This document shows positions 16,114 to 37,860 of a stretch of DNA of 64,000 nt, piece after piece. A program made the translations under genes and the position numbers. Position 1 is the stretch's first letter. The number at the start of each line of letters is the position of its first letter. Source of the DNA: Bacillota bacterium (GTDB lineage Bacteria; Bacillota; Ch66; Ch109). The stretch is taken from the NCBI GenBank assembly GCA_050952625.1, contig JBMNLH010000001.1, positions 288,001 to 352,000 of the forward strand, given 5' to 3'. The notes below the pieces were generated by a model. It was not told the DNA's origin. It did no database searches and saw only the letters and a list, made by a program, of their open reading frames with translations.

Positions 16114-16195
16114 AGGTAGGAAATGTCCTACCCCAACCGCCCGATTCGGGTTGCAAAAGCCGTAAGGCTTACCTAGGAATCGGCGAGTCTAGGGC
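16114..16195 (+). ncRNA. Probable L21 leader RNA (cis-regulatory)
   Basis: Structured 5' UTR of rplU with hairpins and the GGCGAGUC motif just before the SD, as in Firmicute L21 leaders. Confidence 0.55.
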
Positions 16196-16208
16196 AGGGA
16201 GGTGCAAA

Positions 16209-20815: not shown

Positions 20816-20887
20816 TGGGTGAGGTGTGAGGTGTGAGGTGTGAGGCTATCGGTTCGCGTCTAACGTCACATGGGAGCAGGATCAATT

Positions 20888-21604
20888 ATGGATCTAAGTC
20901 ATCAGGTTAGTCGGGCTATTGCCATCAATCGAGATAAACAACTAGAGACAGTGCAGGCCTGCCGGACGGGGGACCACCAACATAAATACCGTTTGGGTAT
21001 TATGGGAGGGACTTTTGATCCGATTCATTATGGCCATTTGGTTACTGCCGAAACAAGTCGGTGGAAGTTTGGCTTGGATAAAGTAGTGTTCATGCCAACC
21101 GGTCAGCCGCCCCATAAACCGGATCGAATCATTTCCGCCGCAGAGCACCGTTACCGGATGAGTTTATTAGCGACTTTTAATAATGCTTATTTTTTGGTTT
21201 CTCGTCTCGAAATTGACCGGCCTGGCTATTCTTATACGATCGATACTGTCAAAGAGATTTTGCGCCAGGTGGGTCCGCACGTTGACCTGTTCTTTATTAC
21301 TGGGGCCGATGCGGTGCTGGAAATTTTAAGTTGGAAAAATGTTCAGGAACTCGTGGAACTATGTACTTTTATTGCGGCTAATCGTCCCGGGTTTGACTTA
21401 AGTGAGCCCAGTCTCAGCGGCCAACAGCCAAAAAGTTTGATTCAGCAAATTAAAACCATTGAGGTTCCTTCGCTGGCCATTTCTTCAACAGAAATACGGC
21501 ACCGAATTATTGCCGGCCATTCGATACGGTATCTGCTTCCAGAATCAGTGGAAGAGTATATTAAACGGCATCAATTATACCGAGACGGTATAAACATTGA
21601 TTGA
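20888..21604 (+). CDS. nadD: Nicotinate-nucleotide adenylyltransferase
   Basis: GGTFDPIHYGH, SYTIDT and ISSTEIR motifs. Confidence 0.95.
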   Translation: MDLSHQVSRAIAINRDKQLETVQACRTGDHQHKYRLGIMGGTFDPIHYGHLVTAETSRWKFGLDKVVFMPTGQPPHKPDRIISAAEHRYRMSLLATFNNAYFLVSRLEIDRPGYSYTIDTVKEILRQVGPHVDLFFITGADAVLEILSWKNVQELVELCTFIAANRPGFDLSEPSLSGQQPKSLIQQIKTIEVPSLAISSTEIRHRIIAGHSIRYLLPESVEEYIKRHQLYRDGINID

Positions 21605-22293: not shown

Positions 22294-22878
22294 GTGAATT
22301 TTGACCAATTGCTGCCCATATTAACCCAAAAACTTCCTCCGCGACGTTTAAGCCATTCTCTAGGCGTTGCCGAGACGGCTGTCGGCTTAGCCAAGCAGTA
22401 TGGAGGCAGAGTTGAGACTGCTAGAATGGCTGGCTTGCTGCACGATTATGCCCGAGACCTGCCCTCCGATACTCTGTTAGAGGTAGCCGAACAAGCTGGT
22501 TTAATTACTTGTTCGGTCGAAAGACTGATGCCGGATTTGTTGCACGGGCCAGTGGCGGCTTGGCTTATACCTCGGGAACTGGGAATTAAGGATTCAGAAG
22601 TATTAAGGGCGATCGCTTTGCACACCTTGGGAGCCGAGGAGATGGCTTTGCTGGACAAAATTATCTACATTGCCGATGCTATTGAGCCGGGCCGGAAATA
22701 TCCGGGAGTGGAATACCTGCGGCAGTTAGTCAAGGTTGACCTTGATCAGGCTTTGCTCGCTGGTTATAATCAAACAATTAAATACTGTCTTGACCGAAAT
22801 TACCTGTTACATCCGCGAACGATCTTGGCGCGAAATACACTCGTGCAGATATTATATTCCAGGGTAAGTTCAGACTAA
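22294..22878 (+). CDS. yqeK: HD-domain Ap4A hydrolase YqeK
   Basis: RRLSHSLGV, GLLHDYAR, LLHGP and IADAIEPGR motifs; nadD-rsfS neighbourhood. Confidence 0.92.
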   Translation: MNFDQLLPILTQKLPPRRLSHSLGVAETAVGLAKQYGGRVETARMAGLLHDYARDLPSDTLLEVAEQAGLITCSVERLMPDLLHGPVAAWLIPRELGIKDSEVLRAIALHTLGAEEMALLDKIIYIADAIEPGRKYPGVEYLRQLVKVDLDQALLAGYNQTIKYCLDRNYLLHPRTILARNTLVQILYSRVSSD

Positions 22879-22946: not shown

Positions 22947-23324
22947 TTGAATGATTCCATTCAACTAGTCCAATGGATAGCCGAGGCTGCTGGTGAGCAG
23001 AAGGCTTTTGATCTGGTGACTTTGGATCTGCGTGGGGTATCTTTGATTGCTGATTATTTTGTCATCTGCAGCGGGAGATCAACCGTCCAGGTAAAAGCCA
23101 TCGCCGAACATATTGAGAAATTCCTGGAGGATAAGGGGATCCGGGTTTTGCACAGGGAAGGGAAGCGAGAGGGGCAGTGGCTGCTTTTGGACTATGGCTC
23201 GGTAGTGGTTCACGTGTTTCGGGAAGAAGAACGTCGGTTTTATGGTCTGGAACGCCTGTGGGCTGATGCAAGATTAGTCGAAGATCCTAAAGAGGATAAA
23301 GGGTTGACATTTGTCGGACCGTAA
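22947..23324 (+). CDS. rsfS: Ribosome silencing factor RsfS
   Basis: DYFVICSG and WLLLDYGSVVVHVF...RRFYGLERLW motifs. Confidence 0.95.
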   Translation: MNDSIQLVQWIAEAAGEQKAFDLVTLDLRGVSLIADYFVICSGRSTVQVKAIAEHIEKFLEDKGIRVLHREGKREGQWLLLDYGSVVVHVFREEERRFYGLERLWADARLVEDPKEDKGLTFVGP

Positions 23325-23332
23325 CTTATAAT
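23304..23332 (+). promoter_or_regulatory. Consensus sigma-A promoter driving the T-box/tRNA/leuS transcript
   Basis: TTGACA(23304-23309)-17 bp-TATAAT(23327-23332). Confidence 0.9.
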
Positions 23333-23523
23333 AAACTCCGTCGACAAGATAAAAGCCTTGAACCGGAGTAGTAGACTAGTAGGTTTTCAGCAGAGAGCTG
23401 TTGGTGGGTGAAAAACAGTAAGCCGCTAGCCGAAACTCGCCGGGGAGCTGCGTTGGTGAATGATTAATCAACGACGGATATCCACCGTTATGGGATGTTA
23501 AAGCTGGGTAAAACACATAAAGT

Positions 23524-23598
23524 GGGGCTGTGGCGCAGAGGGAGCGCGCCTCCTTGGCATGGAGGAGGTCACGGGTTCAAGTCCCGTCAGCTCCACCA
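23524..23598 (+). tRNA. tRNA-Ala(GGC), nested inside the T-box
   Basis: Full cloverleaf: acceptor GGGGCTG/CAGCTCC with G3:U70, D arm GCGC/GCGC, anticodon stem CCTCC/GGAGG with GGC at 23556-58, T arm ACGGG-TTCAAGT-CCCGT, encoded ACCA. Confidence 0.97.
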
Positions 23599-23645
23599 TT
23601 TACTATTTAGTGTTTTATCAATGAGGGTGGTACCGCGGGAATGAC

Positions 23646-23680
23646 AACCTCTCGTCCCTTTGAGGATGAGAGGTTTTTTT
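23646..23680 (+). terminator. T-box attenuator terminator
   Basis: aacctctcgtcc/ggatgagaggtt stem plus T7; overlaps the 3' strand of the antiterminator. Confidence 0.92.
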
Positions 23681-23706
23681 GATTTTTCCGGAAGGAGAGA
23701 TGCTCA

Positions 23707-26193
23707 ATGAAGGACCGTTATGTTTTTTCAGAAGTGGAAGCATACTGGCAAAAGAAATGGGCTGACGAGGGTTTTTACCAAGTAACGGAAGATCCCAATA
23801 AGCCAAAGTATTATAACCTGGAAATGTTTCCTTATCCATCGGGCAATCTACATATGGGTCATGTGCGCAACTACGCCATTGGTGATGTAGTAGCCCGATT
23901 TAAGACGATGCAAGGGTACAATGTCTTGCACCCAATGGGCTGGGATGCTTTTGGTCTGCCGGCAGAAAACGCGGCGATCAAAAATCAGACTCATCCCTTT
24001 AAATGGACCGCGTCAAATATCGCTAACATGCGGCGGCAGTTAAAAGAAATGGGAATAAGTTATGACTGGGATCGTGAGATTGCTTCCTGTTACCCGGATT
24101 ATTATCGCTGGACCCAGTGGCTGTTTTTGCGGCTATATGAAAAGGGACTGGCATACCGGAAGGAAGCTGCGGTCAACTGGTGCCCTTCCTGTGCGACGGT
24201 TTTAGCTAATGAGCAAGTTATCGATGGGGCCTGCGAACGCTGTGAGAGCATTGTCGAGAAAAAGAAGCTGGAACAGTGGTTTTTTAAGATTACTGACTAC
24301 GCGGAACGGCTGCTGCGGGATTTAGAGACCCTGCCTGGCTGGCCGGATAAAGTTAAGACTATGCAGACGAACTGGATTGGCCGCAGTGAAGGGGTAGAAT
24401 TTAGTTTTACCGTCGCCAATAGTGACCAGAAAATACCGGTCTTTACTACTCGACACGATACCGTTTTTGGCGTGACATATGTGGTCCTAGCTCCGGAGCA
24501 TCCTTTGGTTGAAGAATTAACCAAGGGGACCGCTTATGAAAAGCCGGTTCAGGAATTCATCAAGCGGATGGCACACATGAACGAGATAACCCGGACCTCC
24601 GCGGAATTAGAAAAAGAGGGGATGCTGATCGGGGCCCAGGCGATCAATCCAATGACAGGCGAAGCGGTCCCGATCTTAATTGCCAACTATGTTTTAATGG
24701 AGTATGGAACGGGTGCCGTTATGGGGGTACCGGCCCATGATGAGCGGGACTTTGAGTTTGCCCGTAAGTATGACCTGCCAATTCGCGTCGTGATTCAACC
24801 GGCTGGTCAGGAATTAAGTGTTGAGACAATGGAGCAGGCTTACACCGGCGAAGGAATTATGGTTAATTCTGGACGTTTCAACGGCCTGCCTAACGAGGAA
24901 GGCAAAAAAGCCATTGCTGATGATATGGAAGCGCGAGGAATCGGCAGCCGGCAGATCAATTACCGGCTGCGGGATTGGCTGATTTCGCGGCAGCGTTATT
25001 GGGGAGCACCGATTCCGATTATTTACTGCGAGCAATGTGGTCCAAAGCCAGTCCCGGATCAGGATCTGCCGGTTATCTTACCGACTGATGTGGAGTTCAA
25101 GGGAGGCGGCGGCAATCCGCTGGTGGAGTCGCCGACCTTTGTCGCGACTGTTTGCCCTGAATGTGGGAGCCCGGCGCGTCGGGAAACTGATACCATGGAT
25201 ACCTTTGTCTGTTCATCCTGGTATTTTATGCGGTTTACCAGTCCCCATTCTGATCAAGCACCCTTTGCTTCAGAGCATGTAGATTACTGGATGAATGTGG
25301 ATCAGTACATCGGGGGAGTAGAACACGCCATTTTACACTTGATGTACGCTCGGTTTTTCACTAAAGTTCTGTATGATTTTGGCTTGGTGAAAGTACAGGA
25401 ACCATTTCAAAATCTCCTGACGCAAGGTATGGTGCTTAAGGATGGAGCAAAAATGTCCAAATCTAAAGGCAATGTGGTTAGTCCAGAGGAGATTATCAGC
25501 ACCTATGGGGCAGATACGGCTCGGTTGTTTATCTTGTTTGCTTCACCGCCGGAGAAAGACTTGGAGTGGAGCGATCAGGGGGTTGAAGGCAGTTATCGTT
25601 TTCTTAACCGGGTCTGGCGTCTGGTTGCCGGTTATGCGGATCAAGTGACCGGGATCGTAGTGCCGAAGCCATTCCCAGCCGTGAGTGGGGCGGAACGGGA
25701 ACTAAGACGCTGGACCCACTACGCCCTGCGTAAGGTCACCCAAGATATTGAAACCCGATTTAACTTTAATACCGCCATCAGTGCCATCATGGAACTGGTC
25801 AACGCTCTCTACCATTACCAGGCCCGGGTTGCTCCAGAGCAACAAGACCTGCAAGTGGTGAAAGAGGGCTTGGAATCTTTAATTTTGCTGCTGGCTCCCT
25901 TTACACCGCACATTGCTGAGGAACTGTGGAGTGCGATCGGACATCCGGACAGCGTTCACCTTCAGTCGTGGCCAATCTATGATGAAGCAGCCCTGGTGGA
26001 GGATGAAGTAACGGTGGTCATCCAGGTGAACGGCCGGGTGCGGGAAAAAGTCCAGGTGCCAGCCGGTTTGACGAGCCAAGCCTTGCAAGAGCAGGTGCTG
26101 GCAATGGAACGGGTTAAAAAACTATACCAGGACAAACAGCTTATCAAAGTAGTAGCTATTCCAGATAAACTGGTTAGCCTAGTGATTAAATGA
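23707..26193 (+). CDS. leuS: Leucine--tRNA ligase
   Basis: [13 protein letters not shown] (HIGH), CP1 editing motif [17 protein letters not shown]. Confidence 0.98.
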
Positions 26194-27266: not shown

Positions 27267-27434
27267 CTAAACTATGTAGAACAATTGGTTAAAATCAATC
27301 TTATGTAGATTTAATCTTAGATTTAAATCTTATGTATTTTTAATGGAGCATATCCTTTTAATATTTCTTTTAATATTCAGTATTAGAATTTATAATTGAG
27401 GTTAACCAGGAATTAACCGAATTTCAATTGCATA

Positions 27435-27539
27435 AAGTGCTCCGAGCCGGACTGCCCTAAGGTATGAACTATGGCTGTCGGCCGATAGGGTGCATCGGGA
27501 AACGGATGTGCCTCCCTTTTTGGAAAGGAGCCGGTGCTT
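27435..27539 (+). ncRNA. Moco-family riboswitch, apparently the P3-less tungsten (Wco/Tuco) variant
   Basis: CUCCGAG...CCUAAG...UAUGG...AGGGU...GAAAC...GCCUCCC...GGAAAGGAG consensus; only ~4 nt between P2 and P4; upstream of tupABC. Confidence 0.88.
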
Positions 27540-27903
27540 CATCAAGTCAGAGAAGCCCATCTTTCGGTAAACGTCAATAACTGAAAGCAGGCAGATAATT
27601 CAGTTTGTGTTTTGGTGCAGCACTTTTAACAATTCTCGGCAGTTTAGATGTGGGCTGTAATTGGTAACTTTCCAAAAACGGTCCATTTTATTTTGTCCAA
27701 TTTAAATGGATTTAGTTAGAACGGGGATCGGCCCAGCTTTAATCAGATTGGAGGTGGATAACAAACTTGTAGGCTTGTTAGCCACTTATTACTCAACCCT
27801 TGAGCTAGGGAAGTGTACTATATCAATAGGATAAATTAAAGCGGGTAACTAAGTAATATTTAAAATAATTTTTATGTAGACCAAAATTGTCTAACTAAGG
27901 AGA

Positions 27904-37767: not shown

Positions 37768-37850
37768 TATCGACAAAGGCAAACTTTCCGAAAGGAAAGG
37801 GCGCAAAACCACGGGCCTTCTGGATAAACCATGGCAGCCGGGTTGCCTTA
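37768..37850 (+). ncRNA. c-di-GMP-I (GEMM) riboswitch
   Basis: GGCAAAC-TTTCC-GAAA-GGAAA-GGGCGCAAAACC-ACGGGCCT...ATGGCAGCCGGGTTGCC consensus. Confidence 0.92.
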
Positions 37851-37860
37851 GGAGAAAGTT

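Follow-up and report, generated by a model that had tools for sequence, protein, structure and literature searches.

How can a complete tRNA gene sit inside a riboswitch, and is it a working gene or a part of the switch? This question is raised by the leader of leuS, the gene for leucyl-tRNA synthetase, in a 64,000-nucleotide (nt) stretch of DNA from a Bacillota bacterium (assembly GCA_050952625.1, contig JBMNLH010000001.1, positions 288,001 to 352,000 of the forward strand), which is called the window below. T-box riboswitches bind tRNA in trans, and an earlier model reading of the letters (the original prediction) had claimed that the leuS T-box of the window encloses an intact tRNA-Ala(GGC) gene in its Stem III and that this tRNA is made whatever the leucine status. 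Our analysis led us to a composite leader: probably, a transcriptional T-box specific for tRNA-Leu(GAG) carries a functional tRNA-Ala(GGC) at the apex of Stem III, the discriminator's variable hairpin, and the nested domain is released as a tRNA. Judged by sequence, the nesting is conserved and joins a working-looking Leu T-box to a working-looking tRNA-Ala(GGC), with the tRNA upstream of the terminator. A covarying Stem III stalk holds the tRNA between the antiterminator/terminator and the predicted tRNA-Leu-binding 5′ domain. All tRNA-Ala hallmarks are retained, and the nested gene appears to be the sole tRNA-Ala(GGC) gene in most carriers. Most likely it is transcribed from the leader promoter and cut out by RNase P and 3′ nucleases.

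The gap between rsfS and leuS in the window is 382 nt long and contains a promoter, a full-length T-box leader and a terminator hairpin. Rfam cmscan gave a full-length RF00230 match (model 1-219) at 23349-23662 with 124.2 bits against a gathering score of 93 (E 4.3e-27), and the alignment showed only one departure from the model, a Stem III loop of 95 nt instead of 4. The 5′ part holds Stem I, Stem II and the Stem IIA/B pseudoknot with CCGUUA, then a purine linker before Stem III, and within Stem I the K-turn, the specifier loop and the distal AGAGA and GGUG motifs are all in place. The CUC specifier agrees with the amino acid of the regulated gene. The genome encodes a tRNA-Leu(GAG) with an A73-CCA end, whose anticodon fits the specifier and whose ACCA fits the T-box bulge UGGU; the UGGU at 23628-23631 in the antiterminator is the predicted partner of this ACCA end. 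The T-box core reads GGGUGGUACCGCG in the cmscan alignment, where the 5′ arm of the terminator is shared with the 3′ strand of the antiterminator, which makes the two hairpins mutually exclusive. The leuS product has the LeuRS editing domain (Pfam, E 1.4e-77) as well as the class I synthetase and anticodon-binding domains. The leader promoter was the sole + strand match of a sigma-70-type consensus scan in 23000-23900. Thus, the consensus sigma-A promoter of the original prediction was recovered with 12/12 matches, its Leu specifier and Stems I, II and IIA/B all appear in the alignment to RF00230, and its antiterminator and terminator do lie 3′ of the tRNA.

The tRNA gene itself was called by ARAGORN, matched the Rfam tRNA model at 23524-23595 (67.2 bits) within the Stem III insert, and could be read directly as an intact tRNA-Ala(GGC) with G3:U70 and an encoded CCA, so that the T-box and tRNA calls overlap as expected from the original prediction. 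The closing helix of Stem III (23507-23516 with 23610-23619) has 10 pairs, one of them G-U. Both the closing helix and the cloverleaf are present in the minimum-free-energy fold of 23500-23625 (z = -4.93; 0/200 shuffles fold as well), in which the helix extends to 14 pairs with one bulge, and the helix is also present in the predicted fold of the whole leader. Sequence and predicted fold therefore bear out the 10-bp helix around the tRNA that had been claimed. In the consulted part of a 2020 review, RRRxG-Stem III-AA is the discriminator motif of T-boxes (PMC7583486). The window has AGCUG on the 5′ side, with C and not a purine as the third base, and AA on the 3′ side, and we took these flanks as the RRRxG/AA discriminator. 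The coordinates of all leader features are collected in Table 1.

Table 1 Features of the leuS leader and its regulated gene (positions in the window)
Feature	Position	Strand	Details
Sigma-70-type leader promoter	23304..23332	+	TTGACA-17-TATAAT; 12/12 consensus matches; overlaps rsfS 3′ end
T-box 5′ part	23349..23506	+	cmscan alignment to RF00230, model 1 to about 165
Specifier codon CUC (Leu)	23436..23438	+	context GAA-A-CUC-G; purine (G) next
Stem III 5′ strand	23507..23516	+	GGTAAAACAC
Nested tRNA-Ala(GGC)	23524..23598	+	ARAGORN; anticodon 23556-23558; G3:U70; A73 at 23595; encoded CCA 23596-23598
Stem III 3′ strand	23610..23619	+	GTGTTTTATC; conserved AA next
T-box antiterminator	23620..23662	+	core GGGTGGTACCGCG at 23625-23637; cmscan alignment, model 186-219
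Intrinsic terminator	23646..23682	+	12-pair hairpin 23646-23675, then T run
leuS, leucyl-tRNA synthetase, 828 aa, regulated gene	23707..26193	+	open reading frame and Pfam

To see how far the nesting extends, related genomes were searched. When 60 relatives were searched by DNA, four genomes of the same family matched over the full length, and in many other families matches spanned the tRNA and the antiterminator. In 11/20 of the relatives' loci, the tRNA is enclosed by a T-box that cmscan scored no lower than the gathering score, and every nested tRNA was Ala(GGC). A wider scan of species representatives (one genome per species) used as its pattern a tRNA T-loop and Ala-type acceptor end followed by GGTGGTACCGCG within 10-40 nt, and returned at least 120 loci. 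Among the 120 matches listed, ARAGORN called a tRNA-Ala(GGC) at the match in 117, the match lying at the end of the locus in the other three, and a leuS homologue followed on the same strand in 116 (exceptions L060, L106, L118 and L164). These matches include, from Bacillota, Syntrophomonadaceae, Thermosyntropha lipolytica, Desulfofundulus thermosubterraneus, Desulfitispora alkaliphila, Peptococcaceae and Thermacetogeniaceae; many Chloroflexota (Thermomicrobiales, Sphaerobacter, Limnocylindria, Anaerolineae, Caldilineae and Chloroflexia); and one metagenome-assembled genome (MAG) of Coprothermobacterota. A T-box call at the gathering score encloses the tRNA in 6/19 of the named loci. When loci of Chloroflexota and Coprothermobacterota were re-examined by cmscan in E-value mode, 8/8 showed a full-length (1-219) T-box enclosing the tRNA, with scores of 55-91.5 bits (E ≤2.4e-9) that are under the curated cut-off. 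The specifier was also conserved: the motif GAA(A)CUC-purine was found in 110 of the 124 related leaders listed, and the remaining leaders have variants that also contain CUC. This motif replaced one that assumed a single spacer base after GAA and gave Leu codons in just 9/124.

Five carrier contigs bear labels from other groups (L051 Acidiferrales, L052 proteobacterium, L071 Methylocystaceae, L105 actinobacterium and L107 Proteobacteria). L071 encodes a LeuRS with 71% identity to that of the window, which suggests that at least some of these contigs are mis-binned, and the off-phylum labels on a few MAGs may be binning errors.

Within the phylum of the window, a looser pattern (any tRNA T-loop) matched in at least 74 of 401 sampled genomes and in at least 71 of the 362 high-quality ones, while the reversed control pattern gave 0 matches in the same 401 genomes. 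These counts are lower bounds because the strict pattern misses known carriers, e.g., G003 and G034. Of the 76 matches, 75 end in the Ala-type CTCCA, and the remaining one is not a tRNA. Families were mostly all-or-none for the looser pattern (10/10, 6/6 and 4/4 vs 0/8, 0/9, 0/11 and 0/10). No other tRNA species was nested in a T-box among the loci and genomes scanned, and 0 of the 13 other T-box matches in the window's genome overlap a tRNA call.

In loci L015-L164, 137 tRNA-Ala(GGC) calls were obtained, and 133 of them have a T-box core within 80 nt downstream (among the matches listed); the exceptions are two stand-alone genes (L028 and L034), one variant core (L043) and one degenerate core (L020). 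An assembly error or a chance resemblance is a practically negligible explanation of the nesting, since the same architecture occurs in 133 loci from independent assemblies, single-contig genomes included, and the tRNA stems and Stem III both covary. The arrangement is thus not a misassembly of the window, and the nesting in related genomes and the Stem III covariation that the original prediction looked for were both found. As for the two deviating cores, L043 (G027:C47) has a tRNA-Ala(GGC) and, 3′ of it, a variant T-box-like core, GGGTGGAACTCG, with a predicted UGGA bulge in place of UGGU. L020 (G001:C186, from the genus of the window) has an identical nested-type tRNA and a degenerate core that lacks the GGTACCGCG part and keeps a terminator-like hairpin; there is no leuS match on its 2058-base contig, and the genome is 78% complete; decay of this copy or a poor assembly may be the reason.

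The constraint on the tRNA was analysed in an alignment of 126 distinct sequences (A1), which begins 45 nt upstream of the tRNA and ends 14 nt beyond the point where the GTGG motif of the T-box core starts. All 21 cloverleaf pairs tested, from the four stems, were paired in 126/126 sequences, 12 of them with compensatory changes, and G3:U70 was invariant. In all, 96.9% of cells were paired, compared with 41-50% when the partners were slid by 1-3 columns, and 0/500 shuffles reached the observed value. Among the matches listed, G3:U70 and A73 were present in 133/133 nested genes, which comprise 69 distinct tRNA sequences, and all ARAGORN calls of nested copies had the anticodon GGC. CCA is encoded in 114 of the 133 genes; the 19 genes without it make sense only if they are processed as tRNA precursors. 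Pairing in cis between the ACCA of the nested tRNA and the UGGU of the T-box was considered and ruled out, given these 19 genes and the position of the tRNA atop the Stem III stalk.

Stem III is conserved together with the tRNA. In A1, 7/7 of the base-proximal pairs tested change on both sides, with 84.8% of cells paired; the second pair, for example, is A-U in 48 sequences, G-C in 39 and G-U in 14. The pentamers preceding the helix are mostly GAGUG, GAGCG, AAGCG or AAGUG, and in 85 of the 92 loci where the helix is clear, AA stands directly 3′ of it. The linkers between helix and tRNA are short (medians of 6 nt 5′ of the tRNA and 9 nt 3′ of the discriminator base). The original prediction that the flanks are adapted to hold the tRNA is upheld by this covariation and by the retained RRRxG-like and AA flanks. 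The median closing helix across loci has 6 contiguous pairs, and an anchored contiguous-stack test found at least 6 Watson-Crick pairs in 68/126 cognate flanks vs 100/1600 non-cognate ones; this test understates bulged helices (34 loci had fewer than 5 pairs) and was superseded by the pair counts on A1. Two other tests were rejected. Free duplex folding of the flanks gave a mean of -13.19 kcal/mol for cognates vs -9.84 kcal/mol for non-cognates, with 21/127 cognates below the 5th percentile of non-cognates, and was dropped as too noisy because GUGG often paired with the CCA end. Unanchored 7-mer complementarity, from which six short-flank loci (L038, L082, L108, L111, L153 and L155) were left out, gave 7/7 pairs in 50/123 cognates vs 267/2441 non-cognates, and this background was too high.

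Such constraint bears on the idea that the riboswitch uses the tRNA-shaped domain mainly as a structural or regulatory module, which stays in the leader and stabilises Stem III or recruits a tRNA-binding protein. Stem III is integral to the discriminator, and the consulted part of PMC7583486 describes lineage-specific insertions, whose function is unknown, in all T-box domains; the second tRNA-Ala(GGC) of the window's genome and RNA contigs of exact identity not seen entering the tRNA (both described below) would also suit a module. However, a mere scaffold would not need the invariant GGC, G3:U70 and A73 or every cloverleaf pair in 126 sequences, the 19/133 genes without CCA mean that pairing of ACCA with the T-box bulge in cis is not conserved, and the nested gene was the only tRNA-Ala(GGC) pattern match in 14/14 other carriers tested. 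We therefore consider a retained module quite improbable. The 14 carriers were G025, G057 and G013 (single contigs) and G002-G005, G031, G052, G034, G015, G035, G019 and G032; two further pattern matches in G013 are plainly not tRNAs. The same pattern recovers both ARAGORN-called copies in the window's genome, and five non-carriers had a stand-alone tRNA-Ala(GGC) in three cases and none in two.

The next question is from where a functional nested tRNA would be transcribed. Among 118 distinct 260-nt regions upstream of the tRNA, 47 have sigma-70-like sites (at least 10/12 matches) at 181-220 nt, compared with 0.12 loci per bin in shuffled regions, and no sigma-70-like site was found within 120 nt upstream of the tRNA in the 118 loci by this sigma-70-type consensus scan. 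This agrees with the original prediction, which had no separate promoter just upstream of the tRNA. A scan limited to the sigma-70 consensus leaves room for an unrecognised promoter inside the leader, by which the tRNA would be an independent gene that merely overlaps the riboswitch. But the sites form a clear peak upstream of Stem I, the 120 nt in question are conserved T-box elements, and a transcript from such a promoter would still enter the antiterminator and terminator, so we regard a promoter of its own as very improbable. In seven loci (L076, L089, L099, L102, L116, L124 and L142), the nested tRNA is preceded on the same strand, at 183-357 nt, by a tRNA-Ala(CGC) gene, and in the 3/3 checked by cmscan (L089, L099 and L116) this upstream gene ends 9-11 nt before the T-box model start. 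This gap leaves no room for a promoter, and two tRNA genes are there spaced apart by the T-box 5′ domain. All seven loci are labelled Chloroflexota; in L099, for example, the two elements lie at 841-916 and 927-1267.

For release from the leader, we propose the following course. One strong promoter upstream of Stem I would drive both the tRNA and leuS. Because the tRNA precedes the terminator, every leader transcript, whether terminated or read through, would be a pre-tRNA-Ala, and the supply of tRNA-Ala would be independent of leucine status. RNase P, whose RNA gene (type A, 318.5 bits) is present in the window's genome, would cut at 23523/23524. Where CCA is encoded, 3′ maturation would take an endonucleolytic cut in the A/U-rich trailer and trimming, and in lineages without encoded CCA it would take RNase Z and CCA addition. 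leuS would then be expressed by tRNA-Leu-gated read-through, and its promoter would effectively be that of a tRNA gene. Since a promoter busy enough for tRNA supply would also drive leuS, the riboswitch would have to terminate very efficiently. The claim that the tRNA is made from the leader whatever the leucine status stands in part: the position upstream of the terminator, the 118 loci without a sigma-70-like site within 120 nt, the sole copy in 14/14 carriers and the full constraint speak for it indirectly.

Once cut, the precursor would change for leuS as well. Excision would sever Stem I and Stem II, as well as Stem IIA/B, from the mRNA, and the leuS message would gain a new 5′ end shortly upstream of the terminator hairpin, akin to the leader cleavage of Bacillus subtilis thrS. 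From the 3′ end of the tRNA to the end of the terminator T run there are about 85 nt, and with so little left to transcribe the termination decision is probably taken before excision. A fast, co-transcriptional and regulatory excision has to be weighed here, in which RNase P separates tRNA-Leu-bound Stem I from the antiterminator and so acts as a timer, or in which a split riboswitch is held together by Stem III. The geometry allows it, with the tRNA between the two domains that contact tRNA-Leu, and the closing helix of the window is long, with 10 pairs that the predicted fold extends to 14 across one bulge. The short distance would leave little time for it, and the median helix of 6 contiguous pairs means that a long clamp is not conserved. 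A weak hint in its favour comes from RNA data. We compared assembled Logan contigs of digester and bioreactor metatranscriptomes with 23250-23850, and two contigs of exact identity (X1 and X2), from different studies, stop at 23504 and 23508, i.e., 16-20 nt upstream of the 5′ end of the tRNA. These stops are weakly suggestive of a trimmed 5′ cleavage product. Taking both sides together, excision as a regulatory step is unlikely. A contig from an RNA library of a 94%-identical strain (X4) spans 23250-23638, with leader, tRNA and T-box core, and hints, also weakly, at the unprocessed precursor. The high RNA depth over the tRNA belongs to tRNAs of other organisms because the loose ends differ, and the RNA contigs are uninformative over the parts that they do not cover, including the terminator and the start of leuS.

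Several points weigh against the release of a functional tRNA from the leader, and they are brought together here. Contigs of exact identity cover only 23287-23504 (X1), 23365-23508 (X2) and 23261-23465 (X3); metatranscriptome contigs cannot show RNA ends and may contain DNA, and since one contig starts at 23287, inside rsfS and upstream of the promoter, read-through from rsfS or DNA carry-over is possible. We infer both the order of decision first and excision later and the effect on leuS mRNA stability. The promoter scan covered only the sigma-70-type consensus. The nested tRNA family has an atypical D-arm, with a GCGC stem and a 7-nt loop. Most Chloroflexota loci have T-box scores below the Rfam gathering score. 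ARAGORN found 54 tRNA genes in 9 contigs of the window's genome, and among them is a second tRNA-Ala(GGC) at G000:C6:27461-27536 with a canonical D-arm and an intergenic region of its own, so the nested copy need not be essential there. Outside this genome, the sole-copy test used a sequence pattern and not a tRNA finder. The question whether the nested gene is the genome's only tRNA-Ala(GGC) was thus answered in the negative for the window, yet it is the sole copy in the 14/14 relatives. The second copy resembles the stand-alone copy of G006, which is of the same order and without nesting, and the relatives of the same family have the nested copy only.

A more far-reaching version is possible, and we put it forward tentatively. 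In a large part of Bacillota and Chloroflexota, the leuS T-box may be an ancient and obligate dual precursor, in which the cell's only tRNA-Ala(GGC) comes from the leader and leuS is gated by tRNA-Leu; excision would split the discriminator and so either set the 5′ end and lifetime of leuS mRNA or leave a two-piece riboswitch held by Stem III. The T-box 5′ domain that serves as a spacer between two tRNA-Ala genes in some Chloroflexota suggests an early fusion of a T-box with a tRNA operon.

Among known tRNAs that are co-transcribed with other RNAs and then freed by RNase P are the spacer tRNAs of rRNA operons, those of the tufB tRNA-mRNA operon of Escherichia coli and those of the mitochondrial 'tRNA punctuation'. 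The leuS leader resembles them in that a tRNA embedded in a longer precursor is both product and processing signal, but those tRNAs sit between functional units, whereas this one sits inside a helix of a riboswitch domain. With canonical transcriptional T-boxes (RF00230; the Bacillus subtilis tyrS and glyQS types), as described in the consulted part of PMC7583486, it shares the Stem I specifier, Stem II, Stem IIA/B, the flanked Stem III, the UGGN bulge and the antiterminator/terminator. Unlike in these, where Stem III has a short loop (4 model positions), the leuS leader has a 95-nt insert that is a complete tRNA gene, and the identity of this tRNA (Ala) differs from that of the ligand (Leu). 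Extra structured and lineage-specific RNA in the discriminator region is also known as stem Sa of staphylococcal glyS T-boxes (consulted parts of PMC9177973, PMC4574755 and PMC7583486), but such inserts are simple stems, for which contacts with the ligand tRNA or antibiotics are presumed, and are not RNA genes. Cleavage near a leader terminator has precedents in the consulted parts of two further papers: the thrS and thrZ leaders of Bacillus subtilis are cut by RNase J1/Y upstream of the leader terminator (PMC3997798), and the met leader of Staphylococcus aureus is released by RNase III, which cuts in the terminator (PMC7913692). As proposed for leuS, the leader is there cut from the mRNA near the terminator, which affects the 5′ end of the message; the difference is that general mRNA nucleases act at ordinary sites in those leaders, whereas the presumed cuts in the leuS leader would be set by the embedded tRNA and yield a useful product too.

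Our literature search found no description of a tRNA gene inside a T-box, with Vitreschak et al. 2008 and Gutierrez-Preciado et al. 2009 outside its reach, and a full-text search found no paper that names a tRNA-Ala gene alongside 'leuS leader' or 'leuS T-box'. Nor is there such a description in the consulted parts of the TBDB paper (PMC7778990), Wels et al. 2008 (PMC2494555) and the 2020 review (PMC7583486). A tRNA gene inside a T-box is thus apparently undescribed, and an earlier mention elsewhere in the literature is possible. The nesting means that the Stem III apex in the discriminator domain tolerates a whole folded RNA domain. If release as proposed is true, the supply of one tRNA isoacceptor is tied in many bacteria to the promoter of the synthetase gene for another amino acid, and these leaders are a natural test case of co-transcriptional RNA processing against a co-transcriptional regulatory decision. 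Annotators should treat the overlap of tRNA and T-box calls in these lineages as real and delete neither call.

Some minor observations were made in the loci and in the window. In 34 of the 120 matches listed (L045-L164), 600-3500 nt with an extra open reading frame lie between the T-box and leuS (e.g., L064, L108, L113, L127 and L161; L065 and L095; L078 and L121). Several of these frames have a HALHYGSSVFEGIRAY-type motif that we take to be that of branched-chain aminotransferases, which is a candidate identity; others resemble a small acetyltransferase-like protein or an AMP-binding-type enzyme of ~565 aa, also as candidates. In a genome of the same order, a group II intron domain match lies beside a tRNA-Ala(CGC) (L033:1238-1322). 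Upstream of the leader, the window has a cytidylyltransferase-like gene (20870-21604), an HD-domain gene (22294-22878) and rsfS (22947-23324), followed by leuS. Other Rfam matches of the window at the gathering score were an L21 leader at 16125-16200 (36.8 bits, just at the cut-off of 36), a Moco/tungsten riboswitch at 27428-27546 (65.9 bits) and a c-di-GMP-I-GGC riboswitch at 37769-37851 (71.4 bits).

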